Assembly (NCBI GenBank): GCA_026770705.1
Contig: JANJGN010000038.1
Span: forward strand, 6,386,001-6,450,000
DNA length: 64,000 nt
From: Isurus oxyrinchus
Lineage: Eukaryota
Direction of reading: 5' to 3'
Part shown: in pieces, positions 4,986-56,769 of the stretch
Layout: every line of letters starts with the position of its first letter
Position numbering within the stretch: position 1 is the stretch's first letter
Made by a program: the position numbers and the translations under genes
Notes under the pieces: model-generated
Database searches by the model: none
Seen by the model: only the letters and a program-made list of their open reading frames with translations
Told to the model about the DNA's origin: nothing

Positions 4986-4989
4986 AAAT

Positions 4990-7650: not shown

Positions 7651-7699
7651 ATTGCAACGTTTCTCTTTTCCTCATTTTGCTCTTCTTCCTCGCTCCCCA

Positions 7700-21000: not shown

Positions 21001-22379
21001 CTCCACAATGCTCTGAACTCACAGGCCCACCCGTTGAGATCTACAAACTCTCGTTGCTGTCTCCAGATATCTCTTTATTTCTGGTCTGCAGTTTGTTTCT
21101 TCTGCAGTTAATGGAGGCTGAGAGATGGTTCAAAAACTGGTGCCTCTTTGCTCCTCGGCATCTATTCCCACTGAAGCCAATTTCCCGACTGTTCACGCGG
21201 CTTACTTCACACTCCTGTGTAGTTTCCTCTCTGTGTGTCCCGCTTACTAAATTGAAGAGCCAACGGTGAACAGTTGACTGAAACGAAAGAGGCGGTGTGG
21301 ATACAGCGTCTTAACTGTAAAAGTGGGCTCAAATCAATTGGTTAAAGGATAAAAAGTTGCAATGATAACATGCTAAATGAAAGAGAAGGAGTTTGAGGAA
21401 GCAGAGAAAAAGGAAGAAAGGACTCGAGGTAGCAGAGTAATTGGATAGAAGGAGTGATGCACTAGTAGAAAGAGTGGAGAGACATTGTGGTAAATGGGAG
21501 AGCTACAATTGGGATGGGAATGTAAGTTGAAGTGGTGTATAGAGGCAGTGTGAAAATTGAATGAGGTATTCTGGATAATTGGAAGAGGTGCAGGAGGATG
21601 TGTCATTGGAACTATTTCACATAGGCATTGAAATTTGCTATTGATATGAAATTCGGAACGTTTCAAACAGAAGGTAGGAATGAAAGCTTGGAAGAGAAAT
21701 TGAGGCATGGGACATTGAAAATGCGAATCCTAAAACATAATACTCCCAACAGAGAGTAACAATATGAGGAATGCAGATGAAATGATTTCAAAGCGTGTGA
21801 TTACGGATGGTGAAGGCTACTAAAAGGGTACTTTGGTCTCTGAGTTTTACAAGGGTGTTGGGTAGAACCTGTATCCAAGGTGATGTGAATTCATGCATAA
21901 CATAGACAAAGCCGCAGATTGCCTACCGGGTGTTAATTGTGAACTTAGGTATACACTGCTGCACTACATTGATTGGATGGTTACTTGAGCACTTTTGAAG
22001 AGAGACTTACTGACACAATTGACTGCATATTACTGTTGCACGTCAATGGAAGGTTCTGCACGCTGTGTTCAGCTGTGTTTCAACTTCCAGAATCGCCATC
22101 AGCGCACACATAATAGCATGGTAACTGCAACCAGTTAGCGCCCAGGACGGGTTACAGAGCATCATCCTGCCAAATGACAGGTGAAGGGAGGCATGTCCGG
22201 TCTCTGAGGCTGCAGATCATGACTCAAAATAAAGTAAGGTCCAACACGCTGAAGGGCCCCTTGGCACGGAACAGTGTCAGGTAAATCATCAGATGGTCTC
22301 CCGAGTGCATCTTTTGTATCTGATGACGATTTGTGCATTTTCCAGTCTGGACAGATAAGCCAATTTAATTTATGGCTAA

Positions 22380-24020
22380 AGTAAAAGTTGAATACTGTGG
22401 ACGTTGGAAATCTGAAATTTAAAAACAAAATCAGAAAATACTTGAAAAAGCTCAGCAGGTCTGGCAGCATTTGCGGAGGTCGAATCAGAGAATGTTTTGA
22501 GATCCTGTGACTCTTCTTCAGACCTAAATAGCGGTAGAAATACGATGGGTTTTACACTGGTGAAGCGAAGGGGTGGAGCAAAGTAGAATCCAGAGATAGT
22601 GGGGATCACAAGAGAGATTTGACAAAGATGCCATGTACAGAAGCCAATGGTAGTGCTAAAGACTAAGGCCGGTGCCAATAGTGGTATAAATGTCAGATAG
22701 CAGAATGTGATAACAGCAGAACAAGGTTCCGTGCTATGTGGAAGCAAAACATAGGAACACGTTAGAGACGGCCCTCGTAAAAGGGCAGGGGGTGGGTGTG
22801 GTAAAAGTATCAAAATAGAGGGCAGAGTGCATGGTCTAAAGTTGTTGAACTCAATGTTAAATCCAGGAGCCTTTAAAATGCCTAATCAGAAGATAAGGCT
22901 TATAATTAGGTGCTTTACAGCCTTCTGGACTTAACACTAAGTTCATGGCTTCAGACCTGCATGTTGATTTCTTTCCCCAACCATATCCTCCCACAGGGCA
23001 AATCTGTAACTTGTTTTTTTGCTTTGCTTTCACAGACGCTGACCTGTCAGTAACACATTCTGCCATCTGACCTTTACATCAGCATTAACACCTACCTTAG
23101 ACTTTATCACTATCATTACCATTCTGTCTTAGGAACATAGTAACAGGAAAAGACCATTCAGCCCGTCGAGCCTGCTTCGCCATTCAATACGATCATGGTT
23201 GAACGAACAGTTCAATGGCTTTTACCCACACTATCTCCACAACACTTTATGTTATTAATGAGAAATCTGTCAATCTCTACCTTAAGCATATGGAATTGCT
23301 AAGGTTTCACGACCCGCTGGGGTAGAGAAATCCAAAGATTTACAACCCTCTGAACAAAGAAATTTTCCCTCATCTCGATCCTAAGTGGCATCCCCCTAAT
23401 TTCGAATTTGTGACCGTTGTTTCTACACTCAACAACCAGGGAAAAATCTTATCTGCATCAACCCTGTCTATACATTTAAGAATTTTGTAGGTTTCAATGA
23501 AATCACCTCTCTTTCTTCGAAACTCTAGAGAATACAAGCCCAGTTTCCTCAACCTCTCTTCATCAGACAGTTCCCCAAACCCAGGAGGAAGCCTGGCGAA
23601 TCTTCGTTGCACTCCCTCTATGGCAATAATACCCATCCTAAGGTAAGCGGACCAAAACTGCCCACAGCACTCTAGTTGCGGTCTAACCAAGCTTCTATAC
23701 AATTGAAGCAAGACTTCAATACTTCTGCACTCAAATTCTCTTAAGGTAAAGGCCGACATTCCATTAGCCTTCCTATCTGTTTGCTGCACCTGTATGTGTT
23801 GTGTGCATGGCATTTTGTCATTTCTCGTCTGAGCTCCCAGCTATCCCTGACCTTCTATTTTGCTCCACCTGCCCCGCCCCTCTCTTCCGCAGTGGAAACA
23901 CGCACATTTCTACCTCTCTTCACCTCTGAAGAAGAGTCATACGGACCCCAAATGTTAACACTGTTTCTCTCTTCACTGTTGCTACCAGACGTACAGAGAT
24001 TTTCCAGCTTTTTCAGTTCT
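22380..24020. mobile_element. Old Penelope-like element remnant: inverted pair of 3' ends, split by a CR1 insertion
   Basis: 22380-22900 resembles the Penelope 3' end on minus; from about 22905 a plus-strand copy runs to about 23130 and resumes about 23805-24020; degenerate CTGAAGA hammerhead-like cores near 22520 (-) and 23926 (+). Confidence 0.7.
23130..23800 (-). mobile_element. CR1 LINE 3' fragment
   Basis: ORF 23370-23813 LYRSLVRPQLECCGQFWS..RGDFIETYKIL. Confidence 0.88.
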
Positions 24021-24049
24021 CATATTAAATTCTGGCTAATCAGAAGAGC

Positions 24050-27000
24050 AGTTCTGCGAAGGGTCATGAAGACTCGAAACGTCAACTCTTTTCTTCTCCG
24101 CCGATGCTGCCAGACCTGCTGAGTTTTTCCAGGTAATTCTGTTTTTGTTTTGGATTTCCAGCATCCGCAGTTTTGTTTTGTCTTTATCTCTGTGTTTAAT
24201 TGACTGCCACTGCTCTTCAAGAAATGCCTACCTCCTTGAAGAAGTTCTGTTCCTCTCTGCGACAAGATTTCCGTATCTCTCTGTTGCCTTGTTCACCTTC
24301 TTTGCTTTCCATTTCCCTCCTAGTGTTTGACAAGGTGTTTACTAAAACCCGCTTTCACAGCCATATCTCCTTTCTCAGTGACTGCCTCCGTCTCCGACTT
24401 ACCCCACGTGGATTTCAACTGAAATTCCACCCCTCATCTTTCGAACCCACCCAGGATTACCGGTATCTCCGGGACATAAAACGTTTCTCAGACTGCTGTT
24501 CCCGTCACATTCTGAAATCCACACTCAGTGCCATGCGCCGCCATATGAACACACTCGACCGCTCCCTCCAGCAGCACCGCCGTACCCTTTCTCAAAGCTG
24601 CGCGTGCCCCCAGTTTCATTTTATCCTTCGGCTCATCCGACGCTTCAACAAGAAACTTTTTCTCTTTCTCTCAACTGCTAAGGAACGCAAGCTCCAACAA
24701 CTCATCGACACCAACACCCATCTAGGACCCTCCACCCCAGCCTGTCCCTCCGTCCCCACCCCATCTTCCAATCCCAGCCCCAGCCGTGTATTCACTATAC
24801 CCCCTGACCTTCCCCTCTCCGATGCTGAACGTTCAGTGCTCAGCAAAGGACTTAGTTTCATACCCTTACGCCCTCACCTCAATGAATTTCGGGCTCGGCA
24901 TGATACTGAACTCTTCTTTCGCCGTCTTCGTCTCCGGGCTCACTTCTTTGGGCAGGAGTCCTCTCCCAGTTCAACGGATCCTTTTACCCATCTCCAATAT
25001 TCTCCCTCCACCTGGACCCCTCCCTCTGGATTCTTACCTTCTCTTGATCTTTTCATTGAGAACTGTCGGCGCGACATTAGTCGTCTCAATTTCTCTGCTC
25101 CTCTCACCCATTCTAACCTGTCTCTCTCTGAACTTACTGCACTCCATTCTCTCAGGTCCAACCCTGACATTGTCATCAAACCCGCTGACAAGGGTGGTGC
25201 TGTTGTTGTCTGGCGCACTGACCTCTACCTCGCGGAGGCTGAGCGTCAACTCGCAGACACTTCCTCCTACCTCTCCCTGGACCATGACCCCACCACTGAA
25301 CATCAAGCCATTGTTTCCAGGACTGTCACTGACCTCATCTCCTCTGGGGATCTCCCTGATAGTCGCCCAACCTCGGACGGCCCGCTTCTATCTCCTACCT
25401 AAAATCCACAAACAGAACTGCCCCGGTAGACCGATCGTCTCAGCTTGCTCCTGCCCCACAGAACTCATTTCTCGTTATCTTGACTCCCTTCTCTCTCCCC
25501 TTGTCCAGTCCCTTCCCACCTACATCCGTGATTCCTCTGACACCTTACGTCACATCAACAATTTCCAGTTCCCTGGCTCCAACCGCTTCCTCTTCACCAT
25601 GGACGTCCAATCCCTCTACACCTCCATCCCCCACCAGGATGGTCTGAGGGCCCTTAGCTTCTTCCTCGAACAGAGGCCCGAACAATCCCCATCCACCACT
25701 ACTCTCCTCCGTCTGGCTGAACTTGTTCTCACGTTGAACAATTTCTCCTTCAACTCCTCTCACTTTCTCCAAATAAAAGGTGTGGCTATGGGTACCCGCA
25801 TGGGCCCCAGCTATGCCTGTCTCTTTATGGGATATGTGGAACATTCCTTGTTGCAGTCCTACCCCGGCCCCCTTCCACAACTTTTTCTCCAGTACATCGA
25901 TGATTACTTCGGTGCCGCTTCATGCTCTCGTCGGGACTTGGAAAAATTTATTAATTTTGCTTCCAATCTCCACCCCTCCATCATTTTCACGTGGTCCATC
26001 TCTGACACTTCCCTTCCCTTCCTTGACCTCTCTGTCTCAATCTCTGGTGATAGACTGTCCACTAATATCCATTACAAACCCACCGACTCCCACAGCTACC
26101 TCGACTACAGCTCCTCACACCCCGCTTCCTGTAAGGACTCCATCCCATTCTCCCAGTTCCTTCGCCTTCGTCGCATCTGTTCCGATGATGCTACCTTCAA
26201 AAACGGTTCCTCTGACATGTCCTCCTTCTTCCTTAACCGAGGTTTTCCACCGACGGTCGTTGACAGGGCCCTCAACCGTGTCCGGCCCATCTCCCGCGCA
26301 TCCACCCTCACGCCTTCTCCTCCCTCCCAGAAACATGATAGGGTCCCCCTTGTCCTCACTTATCACCCCACCAGCCTCCGCATTCAAAGGATCATCCTCC
26401 GCCATTTCCGCCAACTCCAGCATGATGCCACCACCAAACACATCTTCCCTTCACCCCCCTTATCGGCATTCCGTAGGGTTCGCTCCCTCCGGGACACCCT
26501 GGTCCACTCCTCCATCACCCCCTACTCCTCAACCCCCTCCTATGGCACCACCCCATGCCCACGCAAAAGATGTAACACCTGCCCCTTCACTTCCTCTCTC
26601 CTCACCGTCCAAGGGCCCAAACACTCCTTTCAAGTGAAGCAGCATTTCACTTGCATCTCCCCCAACTTAGTCTACTGCATTCGTTGCTCCCAATGTGGTC
26701 TCCTCTACATTGGAGAGACCAAACGTAAACTGGGCGACCGCTTTGCTGAACACCTGCGGTCTGTCCGCAAGAATGACCCAAACCTCCCTGTCGCTTGCCA
26801 TTTTAACACTCCACCCTGCTCTCTTGCCCACATGTCTGTCCTTGGCTTACTGCATTGTTCCAGTGAAGCCCAACGCAAACTGGAGGAACAACACCTCATC
26901 TTCCGACTAGGCACCTTACAGCCTTCCGGTCTGAATATTGAATTCAATAACTTTAGGTCGTGAGCTCCCTCCCCTATCCCCACCCCCTTTCTGTTTCCCC

Positions 27001-27525
27001 CTTTTTTTCCCCTTTTTTTCCCTATAAATTTTATAGATTTTTCTTTTCCCACCTATTTCCATTATTTTTAAATATTTTAAAATCTTTTATGCTCCCCCCA
27101 CCCCCACTAGAGCTGTACCTTGAGTGCCCTACCATCCATTCTTAATTAGCACATTCGTTTAGATAATATCACCAACTTTAACTTTAACACCTATGTGTTC
27201 TTTTGTCCCATTGTCACTGACATCTTTTGATGATCTGCTTCTATCACTGCTTGTTTGTCTACACAAGCACCTCTGTCTCTCTCTCTCTCTCTCCGCCCCC
27301 ACCCCCCCCCCCCCCACCCCCCCACACACACCTTAAACCAGCTTATATTTCAACTCTTTCCTGGACTCGAAATCAAGTTCTGTCGAAGGGTCATGAAGAC
27401 TCGAAACGTCAACTCTTTTCTTCTCCGCCGATGCTGCCAGACCTGCTGAGTTTTTCCAGGTAATTCTGTTTTTGTTTTGGATTTCCAGCATCCGCAGTTT
27501 TGTTTTGTTTTTATCTCTTTGTTTA
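24050..27525 (+). mobile_element. Near-complete Penelope-like retroelement (Neptune-like; RT + GIY-YIG endonuclease) with about 150-bp direct terminal repeats
   Basis: ATG 24224 to stop 26963; IKPADKGGAVV, MDVQSLYTSIP, GVAMGTRMGP, YIDD, CPRKRCNTC linker, VYCIRCSQCGLLYIGET; direct repeats 24050-24198 and 27376-27525; one frameshift at 25357/25358. Confidence 0.95.
27376..27414 (+). ncRNA. Minimal type-I hammerhead ribozyme motif in the Penelope terminal repeat
   Basis: agtt-CTGTCGA-a-gggtc/atgaa/gactc-GAAA-c-GTC-aact: stem I agtt/aact, stem II, palindromic ACGT at stem III; further copies 24050-24087, 34031-34069, 43015-43053, 48154-48192 (-), 61730-61768 (-). Confidence 0.7.
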
Positions 27526-27974
27526 CTTCTATGTTATATCAATTTTATTCCATGAGATAATTACAAGATGGATTTCCAATTCAGCATTGGAAATGCAGAG
27601 TTTCCCCTTAGTTTTGGTAAATTCACGGAGGTAGAATGACTTGCTTCAAGATTGTGTATCTCTAACTCTGAGGCAGTGAAGCGCAAAGTCTTCCCAATTG
27701 TCTGCATTGAAGAGGGAATAAGAAGTACATTCTAATCGAAGAGGCACAGGTCCTCAGAAAGACGAGGGGGGAAGGAGAGGAGGAGAGCGGCGTTGGGGGG
27801 CGGGGGCTGGTGGGGAACGTGGTGCTGCAGTTGGGCGGGGGGGAGCTCATGGAAGGGGAAAGGCTGCTCTGTTGCTTCTGTGCAGTGGTGCCCTCAAGAG
27901 ATTCGACACTTCGACCTAGCGATGTAGCGATGATTGAAATTTCCCTTATTATCCAAAACTCGCTCATTATTTTC

Positions 27975-28335
27975 ACAGAATCACAGAATAACACAATGCA
28001 GAACAGGTCCTTCGGTGCATAGAGTCTGCACCGACATGAGAAACACCTGAACTTAATCCCATTTTCCAGCACTTAGCCCACAGCCTTGAATGTTATGACG
28101 TGCCAAGTGCTCATCCATGTACTTTTTAAAGGCTGTCAGGCAACTTGCCTCCACCACCCTCCCAGATAGTGCATTCCAGATCGTCACCACACTCCAGGTA
28201 AAAAGGTTTTTCCACACAACCCCCACCCCTCCCCCCTAAACCTCCTGCCCTTCACCTTGAACTCATGTCCCCTCTGAGGGGAACCACTAATCCCTATCCA
28301 CCTTGTCGATGCCCCTCATAATCTTGTACACGTTT
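27975..28335 (-). mobile_element. CR1-type LINE 3' tail
   Basis: Reverse of ..tgcagactc..gaaggacctgttctgcattgtgttattctgtgattctgtga; WNAL-encoding remnant near 28170. Confidence 0.75.
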
Positions 28336-28762
28336 TGTTTGTATAATATAATGTCCAGAACAAAGAAAGGAAAATGTCGATGAAGGCTCCCCAGAATCAT
28401 TGGGCAACTTAGGGCAGAGATTCAGTTTCAATATAGGAATGCAAAGAATTCAGGTTACTTCAAGGGACGAGAAAGCATAAGTTTTATTCTGCTAAAGCTG
28501 CGAAATATTGAGGCTGGCAGTTTAATCGCTTTCTAATTACACATAATTTAAACAATCGAACCCCATTCGTTTGAAAAACTCACTTACAATTCACATGCAG
28601 AGGAAGAAACAATCATCGGCATCTTAAATATACAACAGGTTATTCTCACTTTGGTTATTGTTCGAGAAAATTAAAAAGCAATTCTAAAATGTATAATTCC
28701 TGCTGTTTACAATGTCACAAATATTTAGCCAGGAAATTAAAACTTCGTGCCGGTCAGATACA

Positions 28763-28768
28763 TTTATT
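28763..28768 (-). terminator. Polyadenylation signal AATAAA of the Ig-like gene
   Basis: tttatt on plus, about 78 nt downstream of the ancestral C-exon stop. Confidence 0.7.
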
Positions 28769-28845
28769 AAATCTGCCGAGATTACCGCCACGTTTCGCTT
28801 TGAAATTAAACTCAGGAGTTATTGGCTTGAACTAATAGCCGGTCT

Positions 28846-29166
28846 TTAGCGATTGCAGGTGTCCAAGCTGATGGATTTCTGAACGAGAGTGTCCTGAGAC
28901 TTGTATCGGAACAGACACGAGTAGTGATCCTTCGAGTTCCAAGAGCTGACAGGGACCCTCAGGTAGCTGCTGATGCTGTAGCTGTTGTCAGCCTCAAGAT
29001 TAGGTAGATTTGTGGACACTCCGCTCTGCGTCTCAATGCCCCGCGCTTTCCACGAAAGCTGGGTAGAAGCCCCGAATCAGACAGCTCAGCGACACTGTTT
29101 CAGCTGAAGTTACTTCCTGGCGCGAAGGCGGAAACAATTCCAGTGATGGCACCTGTAGTTGACGAT
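28846..29166 (-). CDS. Ig light-chain-like constant (C1-set) exon, frameshifted
   Basis: Acceptor ttgcag at 29172-29167; DRQLQVPSLELFPPSRQEVTSAETVSLSCLIRGFYPAF then, in the shifted frame, SWKARGIETQSGVSTNLPNLEADNSYSISSYLRVPVSSWNSKDHYSCLFRYKSQDTLVQKSISLDTCNR*; as written the frame stops at TGA 29035-29033. Confidence 0.9.
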
Positions 29167-29309
29167 CTGCAACAGATGGTACATAGCTGACATGGACTGT
29201 CACTGTAAGAGGCATTATTATTGTAGCTTAACGGTATGGTTATCATAGACCTTCGGAAAATACCGCACAGAATGAGGCGTCCATCAGTGCCTCTGCCGGC
29301 TTTTCAAAT

Positions 29310-29620
29310 AATTATTCATCTTGTCTCAGTCATGTACCCTTTTCCCTTAGCCCCGTAATAGCGTCCCAAATATACATCCCATTCCCGTTTGAAAGTTATT
29401 ATTGAATCTGTTTTCACCGTCCTTCCATCCGAGCCCTCCAGATCACAACAAACCGTTGCATAAAAAGAAAAATAAATCCCGCATGGCCGCTCTGGTTCTT
29501 CTTCCATTCGCTTTATATCTGTATTCCGTGAATACCGACTTTCCTGTCGCTATTGAAGTCCTTAATGGTTTGAATACCTGCATTAAGTTACCCCATAAAC
29601 GTCGCTGCTCTAAGGAAATA
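29310..29620 (-). mobile_element. Degenerate CR1-type 3' fragment in the J-C intron
   Basis: Remnant TVKTDSIITFKREWDVYL of the ORF2 C-terminus. Confidence 0.55.
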
Positions 29621-29998
29621 ACCCCAGGATTTACAGTCTGTCCACAGAACTCCCGTCCTGCTTCTCTGATGGGCTTAGTTATGGGCTTATTATCACACCA
29701 TTACAATTTCAGGAATTGAATTCAATTACGCTGGAGGCAAACAAGCTTCCGGATTGTTGTAATAACCAAGTGGCTCACAGGAAATGGACCAACGCCATTC
29801 CTACCAGCCTTGTCGACGTGACTCAGTCCAACACTGCGTAGGTAAATTTTGGTTCATTGAGGGCGAATAATAATAGGCCACCTTCGCTCTGTAGCCCACT
29901 ATGTTCAAAATTAAATTATTTCAAAATGCTACGACACCATTATTTACTATCACCGCGTAACATTTTCGCCAATATCTTTTAGTTTTCACAATAGTTTG

Positions 29999-30298
29999 AT
30001 GGAAAATTCCTCGAATTGCTTGGTGTGAACAACTTGCTAAATAAAAGGGGAATTTTCCATTTTCTGTTATATATTGGGGAACTCCCAAACAGATATTCCA
30101 AATATCTGCCAGCAGTACAAACAAGCAGAGTCATCGCCGCTGTCACATTTATTTGTTCTACAAAACGTATTCCACCCAATGTGCTTCTGATTCTGCTCCA
30201 CTCCAGCTGAAAGCGCAGCCGCTCGGTGTGTTGTAGATCAGTGCACACTAAGCCTTGTGCATTTTTGTAAAAATTGATTCGTGTAATATCCTCAGCTG
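29999..30298. promoter_or_regulatory. Candidate J-C intronic enhancer (three NF-kB-like sites, two E-boxes)
   Basis: GGAAAATTCC 30001-30010, GGGAATTTTCC 30048-30058, GGGAACTCCC 30077-30086 (fits GGGRNNYYCC), CAGCTG 30204-30209 and 30293-30298. Confidence 0.5.
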
Positions 30299-32739
30299 CT
30301 ACCTTTTATTCAGGAGGAGCGCCTTTATTTTTTTTGTAAACGTACCTACAGCCAGTGGCCAAAATGTGAATCATTAAAAGAAGCATTGCCTGTATTTATT
30401 TTCCCTGAAATTGATTACATTGTATTTCTCTATCGCGGAAAATTAGATAATTTCTAACTTAACTCTGACATTCAAACCGACAAATACAGCACTTTATTGT
30501 TGGAAAGATCGAAACCTTTGCACTAACCACATTAAAATTATCATGCGCTAACTTAAAAAAAAACTAACCAGAAGTGAGCTCTCCAGCGCAAGATCCAACT
30601 GATTGACCTACACTTCAGTATCAAAATGTCTTGCAATGATTTTGGCTATAAATTCGCCCCAGGCGGCGGAACAATACAGACGGCATTGATTCTACCGGCC
30701 TTTCTACACAGCGCCTGATATCCTTGTCCATGCAGTTAGTGGAGCTGAGTATCGGGAGCTGTTTGAATGATGGCCGACAATGACTATTTTCTAGCACTTA
30801 TCAGTAGCATCAAGAACAATTGAAAGAAAAATAAAATTACAGCAATATTATTAATGCTTTGAACTGTGGGGGAAGTATTTGCACGGGTCACTTTTTGAAT
30901 TAAAATAGGAAATGCACCCCAGAATATGTTCCCTGCTTTGCATTCAAAGACAAGTTGGGCATTCACTGGGCTTTGAATTGCCATGGATCGAAGAAAAAGG
31001 CAACTATAGCCCATCTATATCCCACCACCCTCCACTGAAATGAGAGCAATTCTTCCCCGTCGGAACAAAAAACAATCGGTGGCAATTTGAAACCTTTTTT
31101 TTTCGGAATCATTGTCATTTTCTGAAATTAATCCTATTGATGATGATGTTCATACGTGGAACATTGCACATTCTTATTTGAACGTTTCTTTGCCTCGGAG
31201 CTCCGCTCTAAACTAACGGTTTATGGTTTAAAATAAAATAATACATGGCAGCTCCAAATTAAATACATTTTTTTCTCAATGTTGTACTGTAGGAAATTTA
31301 AACCCACAACTTTCTGACTCAAACGCCAAAGTGCTACAACTAAACCATGGCTGACACAACAGAAATGATACCAAGAGGGAGTGTAACGGCCCTCTGTGTA
31401 AACATTAACATCATACTCAGTGTTCCATTCCATTAATATCACAATTAAATTATTTCATTCTTACCCTGTCCCACTGTCTTAACCTGCAACTTAAGGTGCA
31501 ATAACGTCTAGGTTTTTTTTAATAAATACTGATTGACACGAATGAGCTTTTCCAATGATCATGGCAGAGGTCTGCAGTTTCATTTAATATTTGCCAAGAA
31601 GGTCAATGTTCTCAAGCGCTTATACCAGAAAAATGGAGCCGAAATACAAGTTCAGAACAGAAGTAAAAAGTGAAATTTCAAATCTTATAACTTACTGACA
31701 ACTAATGTTTTTTTTTAAATTATGCTTCATGCTTAACATGTCTGGAAATTCAGACATTGAATTATACGGTTTGCCAATAAATTAAAGATCGGGTGATTTA
31801 ATATTTGGTAGCTGTACCTGTTCAGATTTAAAGATTCTATTGTTCTGATCAATTTCGGTTTATCCTACGGTATACGCTTTTAGTTATTCGAGCCAATGCA
31901 TTAATATGGAAGTGATGGAAAATACATTCATTGAAGGAATTGTGATTGTTGGTTATGCACCGTTCAGCCACAAAACAATAACTGCCCCCTCACGCCGCTG
32001 GCACTACGCCCCAGAGCAATAATGCATATGGCTATGTGAGCATAAATAGATGTAGAATTGATGAGTGGTGGTAATAAGATAGATTGCTCAGGCGTTGCGG
32101 AAATAAATATCCTGTAATAGCAAGTGTCACTCAATGTTAAAATATGGTCCAGTTTTAACCAGTTTCACACGGCAATACCAACTAGCTCCCAGAAATAACA
32201 AACATCGTCCAATAATAATGAATAGAGATTAGCACCATCAAACATCGCCTACTATTCACCATTGCCTTGGCAGTGGCGCAAATCAGGCCGTATCGGTGAG
32301 GCTGCTGGTTCAGTGCAGCCCCTGACATTTAGCTCCATTGGCTACAAGGCAACTGACTATTGGCCGCTGGGTAAAAGGCGCGGCCTATCTGATAAAGTCC
32401 GTTTCCGCCACCACCTAAGGCGATTTTTACCCCATGGAACCCAAAGAATTTCGGACTCTCTGTTTCGTATCCCGCAAAGTTGAGAATGCTCCTGCTTTCC
32501 TGACAATAATTTTTATTGGAGCAACGTTAACGCTTAGTCTCGTCTCAGCCGAACGATCACCGAGTTCACCTTTTTTCAACTAATAAAATACCAACTGCCG
32601 AGTATCTCAAGCACTAAAGGAAATATTGCCGTCGTGTCGGGCTTGTGACGTTTTTTCACAATGACTGTTGCAAAATTGTGTAATATTTTGCAATCTAAAA
32701 TCTTCCCTTAACACAAGCACGGCCTCAATATTTACTTAC

Positions 32740-33099
32740 CCACTACGTGTAACTCTGTACCTTTGCCAAAATACTGTCCAGAATCAAAAAGCGAGCAGTA
32801 GTAGACAGCCGAGTCCTTCAGCTCCACTTGATTGACAGTGAGGGAGAAACTTTTCTTTGCGTCGTCTCTAGAATGGGCGAAGCGGTCGGTGAACCCTGAG
32901 CCTCGGAGCAGGGCGCCTCTATCATTGGTGCTTTTATGGGTCAGGATCCAAACCGGTGTCTTCCATGGCCTCTGTTGGAACCAACGGAGCCATCTATCCC
33001 CGATATCTCTGTTCTTTACCCAGCAGCTTAAGGTGACGGACCCTCCTGAGACGGCAGAGGCAGTTTCAGCTTGGAGCAGTTCGGGAAGTGGACAGACAC
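32740..33099 (-). CDS. Pre-joined VJ exon (V-set Ig domain)
   Basis: Acceptor ttacag ending 33100, donor GTAAGT starting 32739; 360 nt open: VTLSC..WFQQRP..RGSGFTDRF..DSAVYYC-SLFDSGQY-FGKGTELHVV; no RSS between V and J. Confidence 0.93.
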
Positions 33100-33223
33100 C
33101 TGTAAGAATCAGAGTAAAAGTCATGAGTTCAGGCCTAAGGTAAAGGGTAAAGGCAGCACGCAACGTTTTGGGTCAATACACTTTTAAATCTTTACAGCAA
33201 AATCAGCTCCACGTTATACTCAC

Positions 33224-33269
33224 TGGAGAAACACGTTAGCAAGAGCAGCATCATATAAACTGTGTCCAT
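33224..33269 (-). CDS. Leader (signal peptide) exon
   Basis: ATG 33269-33267 in accATGG context; MDTVYMMLLLLTCFS; 46 nt followed by donor GTGAGT. Confidence 0.9.
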
Positions 33270-33354
33270 GGTTACACTGAGGCACGCGCAGTGATTGACA
33301 AGCTGGGCCTGAGATTCTTACTGTCAGTGCAAAGGCAAAAATTCGGTGCGACCC

Positions 33355-33416
33355 ATTTATATCCCAAACTAAGGATTCTTATTGGCTGTCGGCAACACGC
33401 CTTCAAAAATGCAAAT
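33355..33416 (-). promoter_or_regulatory. Ig light-chain-type promoter: octamer, CCAAT and TATA
   Basis: On minus: ATTTGCAT 33416-33409 (light-chain orientation), CCAAT 33385-33381, TATAAAT 33361-33355. Confidence 0.8.
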
Positions 33417-33556
33417 TCATTTGATGGGAAGAGAACTGGACAACAGACCGAAACCCGTGGACACTTGGAAATTAAAATTCATACCGATTGTGAAAATAGC
33501 AATTGCAGACTCCATGCGCCGAAGGACCTGTTCTGCATTGTGTTATTCTGTGATTC

Positions 33557-34133
33557 CAAACTGGAGGAACAACACCTCATCTTCCGACTAGGCACCTTAC
33601 AGCTTTCCGGTCTGAATATTGAATTCAACAACTTTAGGTCGTGAGCTCCCTCCCCCATCCCCACCCCCTTTCTGTTTCCCCCTTTTTCCTTTTTTTTCCC
33701 TATAAGTTATATAGATTTTTCTTTTCCCACCTATTTCCATTATTTTAAATATTTTAAAATCTTTTATGCTCCCCCCACCCCCACTAGAGCTGTACCTTGA
33801 GTGCCCTACCATCCATTCTTAATTAGCACATTCGTTTAGATAATATCACCAACTTTAACTTTAACACCTATGTGTTCTTTTGTACCATTGTCGCTGACAT
33901 CTTTTGATGATCTGCTTCTATCACTGCTTGTTTGTCTACACAACCACCTCTCTCTCTCTCTATCTCTCCGCCCCCCACACACACACCTTAAACCAGCTTA
34001 TATTTCAACTCTTTCTTGGACTCGAAATCAAGTTCTGTCGAAGGGTCATGAGGACTCGAAACGTCAACTCTTTTCTTCTCCGCCGATGCAGCCAGACCTG
34101 CTGAGTTTTTCCAGGTAATTCTGTTTTTGTTTT
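33557..34133 (+). mobile_element. 5'-truncated copy of the young Penelope element just upstream of the Ig promoter
   Basis: KLEEQHLIFRLGTLQ..NIEFNNFRS* plus 3' region nearly identical to 26876-27478. Confidence 0.93.
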
Positions 34134-35459
34134 CCCTTGTTACCTTTTTGTCTTTGCATTCAAAGTCAAGGCCCGTATGTGTCTTTTTTGCAGCCTTCTC
34201 AAATCCGCCTGCCAATTTCGGAAATTTGTTCGCACATACCCTCCAGTCTGTCCCTTCAAGGGATTACCTGGCTATTTGATTTGTTAATTTATTTAATTTG
34301 TATTAATTTAATTCCCTTTAATTTGCTTTATTGGCTAATTGTTCCAATCAAGAAAATATACCATCCTGCCTTAAAATAACCATTTACCACAACTACCTGC
34401 TTGCAGTCCCCCAACCAATATCCACGCTGCCATGGGATTCACTTTTGAAACAAATTAATTCTTAATTCTCAGTAACAGTGTTTGTAGAGATTGGATGACA
34501 ATGGAGAAAATCAATTCTGTCTCTCACTGAACGCTAAGAGGTGTAGAGTTGTTTGTAGAGGATTACTCCTGTTCTGTAATGTGCCAGATAGTACTTCTGC
34601 TTTAATGAAAGATATTGCGATAGCAAAACGACGTTTTCCCCAATATATTTGCAATAGAGAGTAGAGTTCTTCACTTCAGGCAGCGACTGAGGTGGATATT
34701 AATGCACCTTTCAATCCATTTTTAAACAAAGTAATATGAGGAGACTGAGCAGTACTCGGGGTCACTTTACTTTTCTCCAGGAGAGCGCGCACACGATGGG
34801 CCAAAAAAATTCCCTCCTTTTGTAAACGTGTTTGTTTATATCATTTGACCAATCGAATTACATTTCTTCCCCTGGACCTGATAGTTCGGTTAGTTTTGCA
34901 GATTAACGTGGTATTTACATTATTATTTGACAAACTACAACAAAAAAACAATCAAACTATATGTTTTTTTGCAAGTGTGGTTTGTCTGCCATCCCGATCA
35001 GTTGTAAAAGATATAAGTCAGTAAAATCAACTTGCTAACACTCTAGCTGCACTCAGGAAAGCTGCAAATACACAAACACGACAGATCTGCCTGGGCATGT
35101 GAGCTTACTGAGGCGGCAGCCGCATAACTGGTTCAGCGCTAAAAGCTGAGCTTGATGCTGACAGTGAATGAAAACTAACACATTATTGCGTTCATTTCTA
35201 ACACTCTGGGCAAAAAAACGACTCAGGTTATTTTCAGAAGTAATTCTTAGGGGCACTGCTGCTGTAAAAATAAAGCACAAGGAAATGGCCAACTTTCAAA
35301 TCATTTATGAAAAATTTCAAGTGGGAAGCATACATACTATTCACGTTCACTCAAAACCAAACAGGGTGATTCCAATTTCCACACCTAACTTTTACGAATA
35401 AAAGACATCTCGAGGAATACGACAAGCAAACACAAGACAGACTCTTAAAAGAGCAATGA

Positions 35460-37040
35460 ATGTTATTAACTTTACATGTAATAATCGGTTAATGCCCTTG
35501 GAATGTAAGGAATATGTCACAATGAATGATTATTATTCATTTCATCTGTGATACCTTACAACACTGAGATATTTCCCATTCAGTGTGAAGTACATCAGAA
35601 AAGATGATAATTTACTATTCGTTTGACGTGAGGGGTAATAAAGCGACAAGAAATTATTAGCTTCTTATAGTAATGGATTATTGTTCATTAATGTGAGGGG
35701 TGTTACAGATATATAACTAAATCATGTTATGTGAGCTGTACTCCAGCAATGGAATGTTGTTAAATAAAGTGTGCTATAATACAGAAATGGGTTATTATTC
35801 ACTTAATATGATGCACCTGAAACTAATGGACTAATGCTCAAGTACTTTGAGATATACAACAGCAATGCGTCAGTGTTCATTTAATTTGGAGGATATTTCA
35901 ATCGTAGAGTTTTGCTTGTTTAACGCAAGGGATATCAAATATATACATTACTTTTCATTTCATATGACATATATTACAAAAATTGATTATTTTCAGTTAT
36001 TATAAGGGATATTTGAGCAATAGATCAGTGTGCATTTAATATGCTGCATATTGAAGAAATGAAGTAATGTCCATTACATTTCAGGGATATTACAGTGATT
36101 GCTCCTTTGGAGTGAGTTTATTAAAGGAATAGATTATTCAGTTCAGGTAAGGGGTATCACAGCACTAGATTTTTGTTCGTTTCATGCATTGCAGCAATGA
36201 ATCAGGATTACTTTAAAGCCTTGTACATTATGGCAAGGAATTAGTATTCGTTTAATTTGGGGAATATTACAGGAGTGGATTATTGATCAATTAATGTAAG
36301 CTGCCTCGGAGCAATGGATTATTCATCATTTAAAATGAGTTATATTGCAGCAATGCATTATTGTTTTTAATGTGAGGGATACTACAACACTGGATTATTT
36401 TTCCTTTACTGTCTGATATGTGACAACAATTGATTAGTATTAATTGCATGTCAAGATTATGGCAGAAATGGATTATTGAATATTTGTCGTGAGTTATATT
36501 AAATATAAAGATTATTATTCATTGAATTGTGACTCTGCAGTAATGGCATGCATTTTCATTTAATATATGAGTATTGCAGCAGTGCAACATTGTTCCTCTA
36601 AAGTGAGACATATCAGAGCAATAGATTATTGTTCATTTCTTGTGAGTTACAGAGTTACAATGAATTACCGTTCATTTAATGTGATTGATATTACCTTTAT
36701 GGATTATTCTTTATTTAATTTGAGATATATTGTTGCTAGGAAGCATTATTAATGTAATGTGAAAAGTATGAAAAATGGATTATTGTTCAATTATTGCGAG
36801 TTATATTACAGAGATTGGAATTTGTTCATTTGAAACGTGATATAATTCACCAATGAATTATTTATCATTTAAAGTGAGGGATATAACATCAATGGGACAT
36901 TGCTTAATTGCTCTGAGGTATGTTAAATAATTGGATTTTTGGTCATTTAACGTGAATTTTATCAAGTGATGGAGTCTTGATATTTAATTTGAGGGCTATT
37001 ACAGGAATAGATTACTGTTGCTATCTATATGTATATGATA
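35460..37040. repeat. Degenerate AT-rich minisatellite, about 39-bp unit (approx. GCAATGGATTATTGTTCATTTAATGTGAGGTATATTACA)
   Basis: gcaatggatt at 36311 and gcaatgcatt at 36350; recurrent gattattgttcatttaatgtga. Confidence 0.8.
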
Positions 37041-38389
37041 CAGAGTGGGCTGTGGTGCCCTCTTGCAAACACTGAAATGATGTTCTTACTTTTAAGCCAT
37101 TTTTTGCTCCATTAAAAATTGAGACTCAGGATCAGATTGGATATTAAATAAATCTCATGGAGCACTGGATTACCCCTTCAGTCTACTTTTCCTCGTCGTT
37201 CACCTCCAGCAACGGCATCTCGTCCGTTATTACTGTAATTACCTAATTTCTCTTGTAAGTGTCCCCCTAAAACCTCCTCAGGAATTTCACCTTCAGGAAT
37301 GTTTTCACTTCTTTCTCCTAAGTCTATGAAATCCCCTCTTTAATGGACACCTTCCCCCATGAAAATTATTGTGGGAAATTTGAATCGATATGCTGATCGA
37401 GATAGCTGGATAAGATGAAGCTAATGGCCATGAATGAACGAACACGTTGCACTGATGACAGTGTAATACACTTTCTTCGCCAGCAGAGTGTGGCAATGTC
37501 CATAGTAAAACAGACAGCTCTGCTCCCTTCTGCTGTAATGTCCCTTATTCCTAAAACTTCCCGAGTCAGCAGGTCATTGATGTTTTGATGTGATCGGGCA
37601 CATGGGGAGTTTGGTTGTTTTTATTATGGGATATCATGATCTCCTGGAGTTCGCTTAGTTAACATCCAGCCCGGAAATTTCAGTTTCGGGGCTGGGAACA
37701 AACAAAGATATTTTATACCCCGAAGTCATGGTTCACCACCTATTAAAATTAATGATAAGTTCATGACCTGGCGATGTACAGTTTCCAGACAGATATAGTA
37801 GCTATTCATTCCCACCATCTTTATATGTTTCACGTTAAATTCAGCTTTGATTGCGCGGGGAGGGGGTGTGTTGGGGGATGGTTGGTTGGGGGGGGGGTCG
37901 TGGAGTGAGGGGGAGGCAGGCCGTGGGATATCAGGCGGTATTGAATGGGCCACCAGTTATCTAAAACCACCGCATTTCCTCTGTATGGAATTCCACAGGG
38001 TGGAAAATTGACCAGTGTATAATCGCCATCGATCGGGTAATGACGGATTCACCTCTACCGAAGTCGATTTTCAGCCTCAAAGCGCTGTTTGGACAAAAAG
38101 CAGAGAAAAGTGTCCTAAGTGTGGGGTTTCGTGCCCATAACATGAAGGTACAGATAACACGGGGGGACAGAAAAGCAGGTGGAATCATATCTGCAAAGAC
38201 AAAAGGTTGTGATGCAGAAAGACATCGAAATAATAATCTAGAAATCCCATTTGTGGAAATAATAAACTAAAATCGAAGACAGTAAATTACATTTTGCTTT
38301 CTCAATTTAAAGTTATTTTTAACCAGTTTAGAACAAATGGGATATGAACTCAATTGAAATATTCGATACAGGGATGTGACAATAAGTTA

Positions 38390-39050
38390 AAGGGCAGAGA
38401 GATAAAAGTAGAAATAGACAGAGAACTGGTGTACACTGAGCGTCAGCTAGATGGTTAAAGAGAGGATCAGAAACATAGATAGAGCTACCTAGCGAGGAAG
38501 AAAAGACAGAAATAGCAGTTTGGATGCAGAACGAGAGAAAGGGATGAAAATCAGTAGAGGGATTACTAACAGAAAGATAGAAAGGAAAGAGGACGAAAGC
38601 AGAGCTAGAGGCAAGGAGAGATAGAATACGAGAGATGGGAGAAAATATTGACAGAGTGAGAAACCGACCGCAAGACAGAGGTAAAGATAGTTAGCGAGAT
38701 AGATTGATTGATTGATANNNNNNNNNNNNNNNNNNNNNNNNNNNNNNNNNNNNNNNNNNNNNNNNNNNNNNNNNNNNNNNNNNNNNNNNNNNNNNNNNNN
38801 NNNNNNNNNNNNNNNNNNNNNNNNNNNNNNNNNNNNNNNNNNNNNNNNNNNNNNNNNNNNNNNNNNNNNNNNNNNNNNNNNNNNNNNNNNNNNNNNNNNN
38901 NNNNNNNNNNNNNNNNNNNNNNNNNNNNNNNNNNNNNNNNNNNNNNNNNGTGGCGGCAGATAGTGAGGCAGAGAGATAGACAGGAAATTGTGTTAGACTG
39001 TCGATGCAAGTAGAAGCAAAGAGGAACAAAAGACAGAGGGACCTAAAGAA
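38390..39050. other. GA-rich low-complexity tract containing a 232-nt assembly gap (N 38718-38949)
   Basis: Direct observation. Confidence 0.95.
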
Positions 39051-41669
39051 TGAGAACGGCGGGGTCCTTGTCATTTGCTGAGATCCGAAACAGTTCCGTT
39101 CATTTTCAATGCTACAAATCATCTTCATATTATTAATTCTGACATAAAATGACAGACGTACACTTCAGCACATAGCTTTCCAGGCCGGTGCTGCGTGCTG
39201 CCAGGTGCAGGCTGCAACCGGTACATAAAGCTCTGTGTATTGATTTACTGCAGGACACGCTGCCTGTGGTTTTGCACAGCAGCAGAAAAACAGGATGTTG
39301 GCTGAATAAAATTAGAAAGAAGGCAGCGCAGTTACGTTTTTAGCCTGAATTAATTCGCTGCCTCTGCTCCATCTCAAACCCAGAAAATATTGTTCACATT
39401 TATTTAATTGAAGATTATTTCGAATTTGAGAAATATAAACGGGCATTTAATTGTAAGGGTAGAAATAGATAACCGGGGATCTTAGACTGAAAAACATCCC
39501 TGGGAAATGATAAGGAGGTGATCAAAGGAGATTACAGAGAACAGCTCCAGCTGATCTCGCACTGTCACAGACCTAGTAACCCAATCACTTCACATTTAAC
39601 TCTAATTACCAATATTCTTTAATGTACATTGGGTTATCTCCCTTTAACATTTCTCAGGGTCGATAAGTACAATAACCCTTCTAAGCCTGTTTTGTGGTAG
39701 TCCACAAGGTTTTGCTAGGACGGTTCTACCTGGCAATCAGAAGTGAGTGAGTCCGATTCAAAGCCTAACTTCACAGAGTTCATACTGCCGATTATCCGGC
39801 TGCATTGCAACAAATGTCTTGAGTGACAAATAGTAATTAAGGAGAACCTGGTCGCCTTAGTAGTTTGTGCAGAAATGAAATATCCTACCGAACGATCTGC
39901 TGAAGAATAGAATGCTCCTTGTTTCCCAGGACCATCTGTCTGCTCCAAGCAGTGGCAGAACAGGTTTGTACGAGATGGCAGTATAGATATTAGTGACTGA
40001 GTGGAGGCTGGACAATGGCAGCGAGGGTTTGGATGATGGGTAAGAAACTAGGCGACTAAAGAGGAGCATGAAGAATTTGAGAGGGCTCTGGATTATGGCA
40101 GCGTGCAGTTCAGCGGAGACCCTGAGTATCAGACTTATTGTTGGAGGCTGAAAGGATTCTGAGTGATCAGCGCCTTGAAAGCAGTAACAATACCACAATG
40201 TTTAGAGTTAATATAATTGTAGAAGTTAGTGAAATAAAGTGTTCCTAGGAAGGGAAAATGGACCTTAGTTCGAGTTCTGGCTCTAGCTCATAGAGAAAAG
40301 AATACTAATCGGCCTGTGTGGCACGACAGAGATACTTCACTCATGAGGCTCCAGGTACGACGATAATTTGAGGAGATTCACTTTTGGGGGCGATATGTGA
40401 TAATAAATCGTATGAATGATGTTGGAAAACTGAGTGACTGGTAACAAAAAGGATTCCTAGTGTTACAAATGTGGGAGGCTTCATGGTGAAGGAGGTTGAT
40501 GTTGGAGGCTGGGGTTATTCATGATGAGCTCTCTGAGTAATGAGAAGGTGGGGCGGCCGAGGGGTGAGTTATCTGGGTGACGATGTTTGAGGTTAGCGAT
40601 CAGGGCTCTGGGTGATGGAAGTGCGGGAATACAATGGTGGGCGTTTTGGATGCTGGGAGTTCGGGATTAGTGATAGTGAGGATTCTGGATGTTGTGAGTG
40701 TGGAGTTACTGATAGTGACGATTATTGATGATTGGAGTGTGGGGTTAGTGATCCTGAAGGTTCTTGATGTTGGGAATGGGGTTAGTGATAATGAGGGCGC
40801 TGAATTTGGGAATAGGGTTAGTGATAGTGAGGACTTGAATTTTAGGAATGTGGGGTTAGTGATAGTGAGGATTCTGGATGCTGGGAATGTACGGTTAGTG
40901 ATAGTGAGGATTTTGAATGTTGGGAATGTTGGTTTAATGACAGTGAAGATTCTGGATATAGGGAATGCAGTTAGTGTTAGAGATGATTCTGGGTGATGGG
41001 ATTGCCGGGTTAGTAATAGTGAGGATGCTGGATATTGGGAAAGTAGGGCTAGTGATGCCGAGGGCTTTGATGTTGGGAGTGTGCGGTTAGTGATAGAGAG
41101 GGTTCTGGATGTTGGCAGCGTCGGGTTTGTGATAGTGAGGATTCTGCATGTGGGGAGTATGGTTTAGTGATAGTGAGGAGTGTGGATGTTGGGAGTCTTC
41201 GTTAGCGATCGTGAGGCATTCTGGGCATTGGGCATGCGGGGACAGTGATGGAGGGGATTCTAGAATTTGGCAGCGTGGGGTTATTGATTATGAGCATTCT
41301 GGATGTTGGGAATGTGGGGGTAATGATAGTGAGGGTCCTGCATGTGAGGAGGGTGGTTTAGTAACAGTGAGAATTCTGTATCTTGGGACTTTGTCAGTGA
41401 TAGTGAGGGTCCTGGATGTTGGGAATGTGGGATTAGGTATTTTGAGAATTCTGGATGTTGGAAGTGTGGTTTGCTGATAGTGAGGATTCCACATATTGGG
41501 AATGTGATGTTAGTGCTAGTGAGATTCTGAATTTTGGGAACGTGGAGTTAGTGATAGTGAGGACTCTGGAAGTTGGAAGACGGGTTAGCAAGAGACTGGA
41601 ATCTGGATGTTGGGATTGTTGGATTAGCGATAGGGAGGATTCTGGAAGTTGGGAAAGTGGGGTTAGTGT

Positions 41670-42640
41670 GTAATTTCAGAGGCCCAACCGTCTTAAGCAC
41701 TTTCATCAATGACCTTCTTTCTATCATAAGATCCGAAGTGAGAATGTTCACTTATGATTTTGCAATGTTCAGAGCCAAATCGCGACTCCTCGGGTACTGA
41801 AGCAGCACATGAACAATTGCAACTAGATCTGGACTGGGCTGACAAGTGGAAAGCAAACGTCGCACCACACAAATGCCAAGCAATGACTTTCTCTGACAAG
41901 AATGAATCTAACCATGCTGCTTGATATTCAACGGCATTATAATCGCTGAATTCCTCGCTCCAGCATCCTGGGGGTTAACATTGATCAGAAACTGAGCTGG
42001 AATTGACAGAGAACTACAGTGGCAACAAGAGCAGGCCAGGGGCTAGGAATCCTGCGACCAGTAACTCACCTCCTTGCTCCACAAAAGCCTGTCCACTATC
42101 TACAAACACAAGTCAGGAGTGTGATGGGATACTCTCCACTTGCCTGGTTGAGTGAAGCTCCAACAATACTTGAGAAGCTGGACCCGATCCAAGACAAAAC
42201 AGGCAACTTGACTGGCACAGCATCCAGAAACATTCAGTCCATCCACCACCGACTCACATTGACAGCACTGTGTACCATCTACAAGATGCACTGCAGGAAC
42301 TCAACAAGGCTCCTTCGACAGCAGCTTCCAAGCCCATGGCCGCTACCATACAGAAAGGCAAGCACAGCAGATATATGGGGATACCAGCACCTGGACATCC
42401 CAACTCAAGCCACTCACCATTCTGACTTGGAAAAATATATCGCCGTTCCTTAAATGTCTCTGGGTCAAAATCCTTGGAGTCCCTTGCTAACAGTTCTCCG
42501 GGTGTACCAAAATCACATGGACTGCAGCGGTTCAATGAGGCAGATCACCACCACCTTCTCAAGGGCAATTAGGGTTGGTTAATGAATGCAGGCCTAGTCA
42601 CCAATGACCAAATGCCATGAATGAATAATAATAAATAAAA
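41670..42640 (+). mobile_element. CR1/L2-group LINE 3' fragment within the minisatellite
   Basis: TFINDL, LGILRPVTHLL, QVRSVMGYSPLAW; tail atgaatgaataata. Confidence 0.85.
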
Positions 42641-42884
42641 ATAGTGACAGTGAGAATTGTGGATGTTGGGAATGATGTTAGTGATGGTGAGTATTCTGGA
42701 AGTTGGGAATGGGGCTAGTGATAGTGAGGTTTCAGAATGTTGGGAGTATGGTTTATTGATAGTGAGGATTCTGGATACTGGAAATGTGGTGTTAGTGATA
42801 GTGAGGCTTGCGGATATTGGCAATGAGATTCGTGAGAGTGAGGATTCTGTACATTGGAAATGAGGTTAATGAGAGTGAGGATGC

Positions 42885-43150
42885 ACTGCTTGTTTGTCCA
42901 CACAACCACACCCGCAACCCCTCCCCCACCCCTCTCTCTCTCTCTATCTCTCTGCCCCCCACACACACACCTTAAACAAGCTTATATTTCAACTCTTGCT
43001 TGGACTCCAACTCAAGTTCTGTTGAAGGGTCATGAGGACTCGAAACGTCAACTCTTTTCTTCTCCGCCGATGCTGCCAGACCTGCTGAGTTTTTCCAGGT
43101 AATTCTGCTTTTGTTTTGGATTTCCAGCATCTGCAGTTCTTTTGTTTTTA
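42885..43150 (+). mobile_element. Short Penelope terminal-repeat fragment with hammerhead motif
   Basis: Matches 27245-27510. Confidence 0.85.

Positions 43151-56730: not shown

Positions 56731-56769
<39 letters not shown>

Follow-up and report, generated by a model that had tools for sequence, protein, structure and literature searches.

The joined gene in the window

The window, the whole 64-kb stretch of Isurus oxyrinchus DNA analysed here, holds one V and one C sequence only (85 Ig queries), and these belong to one gene on the minus strand, which also has a leader exon. The leader exon (33269-33224, 46 nt) ends in a GT donor and encodes a split leader in phase 1, its junction being seen in spliced contigs as a 124-nt skip. 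The following V-J exon is germline-joined (33099-32740, 360 nt, flanked by AG/GT), with an open frame and intact Cys/Trp/Cys and FGxG positions. A GT-AG intron of 3573 nt (29167..32739), in which no extra J, V or RSS was found, separates it from a C1-set exon (29166-28846); Pfam assigns the two domains of the window copy at E=1e-16 (V-set) and E=2e-9 (C1-set). The C exon is pseudogenised, as an 11-nt deletion at 29048/29049 shifts the frame and a premature stop follows at 29035-29033, and the window copy is therefore a pseudogene. Beyond it the 3' UTR region (28483..28768, minus strand) has AATAAA at 28768 and 28488. An Ig octamer, ATTTGCAT (33409..33416, minus strand), lies 140 nt upstream of the ATG, and a TATA-like box can be picked out by sequence at 33356..33361 (minus strand). 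The octamer is also present upstream of an intact copy of the gene (see below), a split sigma-2 gene (L065) and a lambda gene (L066), and none was found in the loci taken for sigma, kappa and the joined gene on contig C783.

The V-J junction, YYC-SLFDSGQY-FGKGTELHV, is a single open frame in which a 24-nt CDR3 (32794-32771, minus strand) lies between the Cys codon at 32797 and the Phe codon at 32770. A scan for RSS (heptamer with at most 1 mismatch, nonamer with at most 2, spacers of 11-13 or 22-24) gave no site in 28000-34500 and three poor ones across the whole window, and the same scan gave a perfect 12-spacer RSS in 5/5 split control loci. The sequence-only reading, that V and J are contiguous in genomic DNA with neither heptamer nor nonamer, is thus borne out, and a retrocopy is rejected, as that reading also held, because both introns are present. 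Its claim of a CDR3 fixed at 8 aa is right as to length, which is 24 nt in 11 of the 13 other V-J copies (two have a 1-nt insertion), but not quite as to sequence, since the intact copy has SLFDSGYY and the window copy SLFDSGQY. The joint is too diverged for P or N bases to be read, and a close split relative was not found.

Copies, transcripts and the germline join

The genome contains 14 V-J copies, 74-100% identical, all 14 joined and only one intact. Searching by J pattern and searching by junction DNA both lead to the same 14 places, where every J is fused to a V, and no V at 47%-74% identity occurs among the 150 scored of 947 candidates. The follow-up proposed with the sequence-only reading, a search for split relatives and intact paralogues, therefore yields no split relative in this assembly and one intact copy. 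This paralogue (L051, contig C326) has one L-VJ-C reading frame of 245 aa, with a single C1-set domain, the C-terminal Cys typical of light chains and no TM. That a working light-chain gene lies at the locus is supported in part: the germline-joined V-J-C cluster is there, but the window copy, with its frameshifted C exon, does not encode a whole chain. The 11-nt deletion is common to eight copies that form one clade (support 100/100); a single event produced it, and large segmental duplications later multiplied it. Such a duplicate spans positions 1..63572 of the window (no strand): most of the window aligns colinearly, at 95-99%, with the surroundings of the intact gene on C326, and the five stretches sampled do so with C38:13.67-13.73 Mb as well. 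The flanks of the copies have diverged to 90-100% identity. Comparison of the intact copy with that on C26 gives pN/pS of 0.54 (V-J) and 0.37 (C), although the C26 copy is broken.

The joined copies share contigs with 10 of the 11 IgNAR V segments found, and these contigs also bear IgM and NAR-TCR-like V genes. On C38 about 1.2 Mb separate the window copy from the nearest IgNAR V, and contigs C49 and C326, which carry joined copies, gave no IgNAR V match. Duplications in this IgNAR-bearing region likely carried the 13 broken V-J copies along as passengers. Co-amplification with a joined IgM (IgM1gj-like) is rejected, as the heavy-chain clusters examined on C38 are split IgNAR with five C exons.

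In runs X11 and X12, which are one sample of guessed RNA status, the contigs have low depth (6.5 and 12), lack both introns, which are spliced at GT-AG, and contain the 11 nt. At 21/21 listed sites they agree with the intact copy, and at 0/21 with the window-type copy. The transcript contig continues past the stop into the 3' UTR without a splice to a membrane exon, and its extent suggests a transcript end near the distal AATAAA. Spliced L-VJ-C transcripts, which had been proposed as a check, are thus found in one RNA-like sample, from the intact paralogue only.

The junction is also crossed by DNA contigs of two other species, organism B (one contig) and organism C (two contigs, no gaps), and organism C DNA carries the 11 nt missing from the window copy. 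As the join is continuous in this DNA it is germline, and not somatic, just as the sequence-only reading had supposed and had wished to see confirmed. A somatic rearrangement or an assembly error in the reference can be set aside almost entirely, given a join common to 14 copies with diverged flanks and to the DNA of two other species, and a deletion common to a clade of eight copies.

The join is probably old. A bamboo-shark protein, P0001, has 72% identity for V and 73% for C; its CDR3 is 8 aa long, and it has one C1-set domain, a terminal Cys and no TM. Its join is inferred from gene models, not from bamboo-shark DNA, and its J has LGNG, not FGxG. In a Mustelus model C is 81% identical, and the first half of V is absent from the model. 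Joining after the split from bamboo sharks is rejected (p=4e-5). Only two representatives of the lineage were found among 1.84 billion cluster representatives, so that it may be patchy or often lost.

Placement among light chains

The trees suggest that the gene forms a separate, deep branch within the sigma-2-like light chains. It groups with sigma-2-like chains in V trees (support 98/91 and 95/92) and in V+C trees (89/87 and 83/94), while C-only trees give no resolved placement and one V-only tree fails to recover a sigma-2 group. The clade of canonical sigma-2 (NS5/type I) excludes it in the V+C trees (97/95 and 100/99), and its identity to canonical sigma-2 is 37-48% in V and 37-45% in C. 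In a first V tree a long row, the C1 VJ, fell inside the lineage; it was removed, as were 11 further rows that were long or redundant. The C tree left out the C26 C exon and P0076, and the V tree left out TCR-alpha V. Membership of lambda is rejected by AU tests on V+C (p=0.0008), despite the automatic name 'lambda-1-like' of P0001, as are sistership to kappa (p=0.001) and to the split sigma-2 of this genome (p=0.016). Sistership to lambda+kappa (p=0.13-0.16), to canonical sigma-2 as a whole (p=0.15-0.24) and to sigma (p=0.065-0.096, absent from the best trees) is not rejected, nor, with V only, is a position outside all light chains (p=0.069). PDB searches returned generic antibody fragments only, and Atlas searches generic V-set/C1-set clusters.

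Germline-joined shark light chains are textbook knowledge. Sigma-2 (sigma-cart, type I, NS5) is reported as joined in skates, split in horn shark and mixed in nurse shark (PMC5192425, PMC4279169, PMC5985310), and our gene resembles it in its L-V-J-C cluster, long CDR2, octamer promoter, top identity and best tree position. It shares a D-S-G core in an 8-aa joined CDR3 with joined sigma-2 of dogfish and rays, but differs from canonical sigma-2 in lying outside its clade, in a CDR2 three residues longer in the joined V-J exon, in having no split member in this genome and in the better conservation of CDR1 and CDR2 than of frameworks. A nurse-shark germline-joined sigma-2 chain, from one of four NS5 loci, is reported to pair with IgM1gj in neonates (PMC4279169, PMC5192425); by description, not by sequence, it is likewise one light chain, joined in frame, whose binding site is predetermined. 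For nurse-shark kappa (NS4), germline joins are described as recent events; the split relatives reach 99% identity (Lee et al. 2000, PMC2193156). The joined NS4 genes too have no RSS left, keep the octamer and include pseudogenes (PMC2193156), whereas no close split relative occurs here and kappa membership is rejected. Joined sigma-2-like genes are also reported in coelacanth, gar and turtle, those of gar flanking IgH (PMC5985310), and the C783 gene is a conserved joined shark gene (P0003, P0006, P0025, P0029, P0055, P0068). All are joined, sigma-2-like and old like ours, but form separate branches with V identity of 30-44%; sistership to the coelacanth/lungfish genes (p=0.24) or to the C783 gene (p=0.52) is neither shown nor rejected. 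The literature searched, outside which key subscription papers fall, gave no description of this joined lineage and no 'NS5-16'. The new part is modest, and provisionally it is an old, always-joined and apparently undescribed sigma-2-like lineage.

Origin and possible role

We favour, with a probability of about 0.7, the view that the gene in the window is a frameshifted duplicate of a germline-joined light-chain gene, that the single intact paralogue is spliced and likely encodes a fixed light chain of a deep sigma-2-like branch, and that this branch was likely joined once in the germline of an ancestral shark. The join would be the work of RAG on a split 12/23 V-J cluster in a germ cell and would predate the divergence of this shark's lineage from that of the bamboo sharks. 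The octamer promoter would then drive B-cell transcription with no rearrangement required, and conserved VL interface positions, together with the C-terminal Cys, would let the chain pair with an IgM or IgW heavy chain. Selection may keep CDR1 and CDR2 nearly constant, so that the chain would recognise a ligand that is itself conserved, an idea also put forward for neonatal germline-joined antibodies. Between the intact copy and P0001 identity is 24/27 in CDR1+2 and 47/71 in the frameworks (Fisher p=0.025), a marginal difference from one species pair; with IMGT-like bounds CDR1+2 scores 16/17 (p=0.035) or 18/20 (p=0.054). Canonical sigma-2 has the opposite trend, frameworks being better kept than CDR1+2 in 9/9 comparisons. 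CDR3 sequence differs between the species (SLFDSGYY here, SIYANAMF in bamboo shark). The conservation of CDR1 and CDR2 lends some support to a fixed-specificity, innate-like chain, as the sequence-only reading had proposed. More tentative is the bolder proposal that sharks have a light-chain lineage, always joined and so far unrecognised, which is as deep as the named isotype branches and lies where IgNAR does in the antigen-receptor complex. Its CDR1 and CDR2 would be near constant across shark orders, with one working copy among dead duplicates, and it might serve as an innate-like antibody half or as a surrogate chain with a conserved ligand.

The gene could instead be an ordinary germline join of canonical sigma-2 that has drifted fast, has no special function and is mostly decaying. 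Thirteen of 14 copies are indeed broken, sistership to the whole of canonical sigma-2 survives the AU test, and joined sigma-2 genes with an 8-aa CDR3 are common in rays and dogfish. We nevertheless think this unlikely in view of the low identity to canonical sigma-2, the rejection of a join later than the bamboo-shark split, the persistence of an intact spliced copy with the pN/pS values above, and the better conservation of CDR1/2 than of frameworks. An invariant chain with a non-antibody job, be it testing or chaperoning new heavy chains as a surrogate light chain or serving as a partner of the IgNAR locus, would accord with the invariant, conserved CDR1/2, the single working copy and the contigs shared with IgNAR V segments, and the passages on cartilaginous fish in PMC9614664 and PMC5192425 describe no surrogate chain. 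This too is improbable, since the gene is a complete VJ-C without VpreB- or lambda5-like tails, IgNAR is reported to have no light chain, and IgNAR V segments are remote from the window copy or absent from the matches on C49 and C326.

A never-split relic of a pre-RAG VJ-C1 receptor (UrIg, UrIg2, PRARP-like), merely resembling a light chain, is a distinctly poor prospect. UrIg2 is reported to have many C domains and a TM and to be expressed in gill and liver (PMC12227049). A single VJ exon, a split leader and linkage to the IgH/TCR-alpha-delta region are points in common with UrIg and UrIg2, and contigs with IgNAR, IgM and NAR-TCR-like V genes match the region reported for UrIg2 (PMC12227049). 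The lack of a split relative in this assembly and the survival of a V-only position outside all light chains also favour such a relic. Against it, UrIg and UrIg2 have three or more C domains, and our gene has one that ends in Cys, an octamer promoter, no TM or membrane exon, and a light-chain position in the best trees. These place it among sigma and sigma-2 chains, whose members in this genome carry a 12-spacer RSS at the corresponding position, so that for a relic within that group one would have to assume that transposons inserted repeatedly at a single site; the CDR3 of our gene moreover retains the D-S-G core seen in dogfish and ray sigma-2 chains that are joined. Of the two origins named in the sequence-only reading, germline joining of a split ancestor long ago thus fits better, and 'never split' is disfavoured.

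Lee et al. 2000 (PMC2193156) raised the question whether any germline-joined light chain has a selected, fixed specificity. A joined chain of single copy, its CDR1/2 kept better than its frameworks, would test that question directly; the window copy, for its part, is a dead duplicate only. The gene also suggests that 'sigma-2' may hide several deep lineages, at least four being seen in sharks, which bears on the origin of light-chain isotypes and of the IgH-linked receptor complex. An unnamed UrIg-like V (C8) fell apart from our gene in the V tree.

The joined gene, its copies and their duplication

The window gene lies on the minus strand. Its exons are the leader (33269-33224, 46 nt), a V-J exon with a single open frame (33099-32740, 360 nt) and a C exon (29166-28846); the introns between them measure 124 and 3573 nt and are of GT-AG type. 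Upstream of the leader come an octamer and a TATA-like box, and Pfam assigns V-set and C1-set domains. YYC-SLFDSGQY-FGKGTELHV is read without interruption in one V-J frame, and no recombination signal (RSS) was found across 28000-34500 by a scan that detected a perfect 12-spacer RSS in 5/5 split loci. Exon map and scan agree with the sequence-only reading that V and J are contiguous in the germline, without RSS and with introns kept; the feature is real. That reading had also proposed a VJ-C antigen-receptor gene, which holds for the joined gene but not for the window copy, where an 11-nt deletion at 29048/29049 in the 727-nt spliced frame causes a frameshift and a stop at 29035. This copy is a pseudogene of an already known gene type, and was the sole window match to 85 Ig-domain queries, which found no further V or C.

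The search for split relatives and intact paralogues in the 4.98-Gb assembly (G000) gave 14 V-J copies and one 5' fragment; 14/14 copies are joined and 1/14 is intact. The same 14 places, all V-fused, were obtained from a J-segment pattern and from a junction DNA search. The intact copy, on contig C326, encodes 245 aa with a C-terminal Cys as last residue. The 11-nt deletion is common to eight copies forming one clade (both branch supports 100). In the pair on C49 the V acceptors are altered and another deletion, of 7 nt, is present; the C exon is missing from one C38 copy and one C26 copy, and a frameshift in V affects both copies on C26. The window is colinear with the C326 region (95-99% over about 60 kb), as it likewise is with sampled stretches at C38:13.67-13.73 Mb (95-99%), and is a segmental duplicate. 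As the deletion-bearing copies are one clade and the window is such a duplicate, the broken allele was multiplied after its death. Within that C38 region, L052 (G000:C38:13693900-13702900) matches the window at 100% across 4750 aligned columns of the gene, but its flanks are only about 98-99% identical and are rearranged, so that it reads as sequence duplicated or converted very recently and not as a simple duplication by the assembly.

The same duplicated segment contains a Rhodopsin-family GPCR fragment (window 10259-11014, plus strand; Pfam 7tm_1, E=3e-13), whose C326 counterpart appears interrupted. The window also holds Penelope-like retroelement copies (RT and GIY-YIG) at 24200-26963 (plus) and 62209-63574 (minus), one with a 745-aa open frame, a 22-bp satellite (37-4983), a 37-39-bp satellite (40647-46283) and, elsewhere, CR1/LINE fragments.

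Germline join and splicing

Junction and splicing were examined in four of 24 candidate sequencing runs. X11 and X12, from one Isurus oxyrinchus sample that the index guesses to be RNA, each gave one L-VJ-C contig in which both introns are skipped at the predicted sites and the 11 nt are present. At 21 differences taken from those listed these contigs match the intact copy at 21/21, the window-type copy at 0/21 and the next best copies at 14/21. The intact copy, not the window type, is spliced, given the guessed RNA status; the transcript contig continues beyond the stop and is not spliced to a membrane exon.

Unjoined V and J in germline reads would have indicated a somatic rearrangement captured by the assembly. 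That explanation, and an assembly artefact, are excluded by junction-crossing DNA contigs from two other species: one in organism B, with 15 extra nt over a stretch in which the intact copy has 11+1+3 extra, and two without gaps in organism C (93% and 88% alike), in which the 11 nt are present at full depth. The V-J join is germline.

Placement of the lineage and conservation of its CDRs

Close relatives are few. A V query gave one match among 285 candidates, the bamboo-shark protein P0001, modelled as an L-VJ-C chain of 245 aa whose CDR3 has 8 aa. P0001 as query gave one additional match among 125, from Mustelus: this model has a stretch of 8 aa resembling a CDR3, and its C domain is 81% identical to that of the intact copy. 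These two were the only close members among 1.84 billion cluster representatives, the others in the best 150 having at most 42% identity.

Other Ig genes of this genome are almost the same as named lamniform-shark proteins, which marks it as a shark. It has sigma-2 (C36), sigma (C12) and kappa (C16) genes in split form, joined lambda (C13) and a second joined sigma-2-like gene on C783; the labels follow resemblance to named proteins of skate (type I) and horn shark and, for sigma, kappa and lambda, features typical of these isotypes. V trees group the lineage with sigma-2-like chains (98/91 and 95/92), as more weakly do V+C trees (89/87 and 83/94), which set it apart as a separate deep branch, excluded from the canonical (NS5/type I) clade (97/95, 100/99); C-only trees give it no resolved position. 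On V+C, AU rejects membership of lambda or kappa, and also a position as sister of the local split sigma-2; a join postdating the split from bamboo sharks is rejected (p=4e-5). AU tests are compatible with sigma, lambda+kappa, canonical sigma-2, the C783 lineage or coelacanth/lungfish chains as the sister group, and with a position outside all light chains. By the tests run the lineage belongs to none of canonical sigma-2, lambda, kappa or UrIg.

The orders of this shark and of bamboo sharks diverged roughly 200 million years ago. When the intact copy is aligned with P0001, CDR1+2 are identical at 24/27 positions and frameworks at 47/71 (p=0.025, one species pair compared post hoc; p=0.035 or 0.054 with IMGT-like bounds), while the CDR3 sequence is not conserved. 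In split sigma-2 against nine other species the CDRs were less conserved than frameworks every time; in five comparisons of the C783 gene the two were alike. The CDR pattern would be a sign of a fixed binding site; that the lineage is held to a conserved ligand is possible, though less likely than not. The lineage probably works like other germline-joined light chains, and it seems to be old, always joined and sigma-2-like, with conserved CDR1/2 and a single working copy.

Germline-joined clusters are a regular feature of cartilaginous fish, including all lambda, skate sigma-2 and some nurse-shark kappa, and one joined nurse-shark sigma-2 pairs with neonatal IgM1gj (accessible parts of PMC4279169, PMC5192425, PMC3308330). 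Sigma-2 is also joined in coelacanth, gar and turtle (PMC5985310, in part, including supplementary figs 9-10), and the available text of Lee et al. 2000 (PMC2193156) makes a case for germ-cell RAG action and a possible specialised function. A literature search reaching few subscription immunology papers found no description of this lineage, nor do the accessible portions of PMC10751288, PMC9614664, PMC13433984, PMC11641339, PMC8692893 and PMC2192082 contain one.

Genomic setting and other joined genes

The C38 heavy-chain clusters examined are split IgNAR, and 10/11 IgNAR V matches lie on contigs that also bear the lineage (C38, C100, C42, C26); C26 additionally has IgM-type V and many NAR-TCR-like V matches, and C326 has no IgNAR V match. 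This setting matches the antigen-receptor complex of PMC12227049, the accessible part of which tabulates a single 'IgL sigmaprime' for great white and a single 'IgLsigma' for catshark, neither of which could be matched to the lineage.

The germline-joined, sigma-2-like C783 gene (L067: VJ 3921-4268, C 2095-2424; 9-aa CDR3) has orthologues in seven other shark proteins from five orders (P0003, P0005, P0006, P0025, P0029, P0055, P0068), P0213 being a possible outside relative. A catshark light-chain lineage whose CDR3 varies falls, with weak support, beside sigma-2-like chains of caecilian and turtle (P0070, P0071 and P0186 in this set). The caecilian chain takes the range of sigma-2-like genes into amphibians; the matches in this genome included no counterpart. 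Joined VJ exons in tandem, whose V is sigma-2-like and whose CDR3 is very short (C2:2.25-3.61 Mb, L082 and L083; C507/C558), and for which no C exon was seen, resemble Pristiophorus P0033. C8:68.00-68.03 Mb (L099-L101) holds two putative genes of UrIg-like layout, each a joined VJ exon with the J motif WCGCG followed by several C1 exons. The eleven IgNAR V segments (70-100% identity) lie on C38 (five), C42, C100, C26 and C126, and the three examined are all split; two fully germline-joined VDJ heavy-chain exons with identical CDR3-J lie at C26:27178390 and 24432821 (L089, L090).
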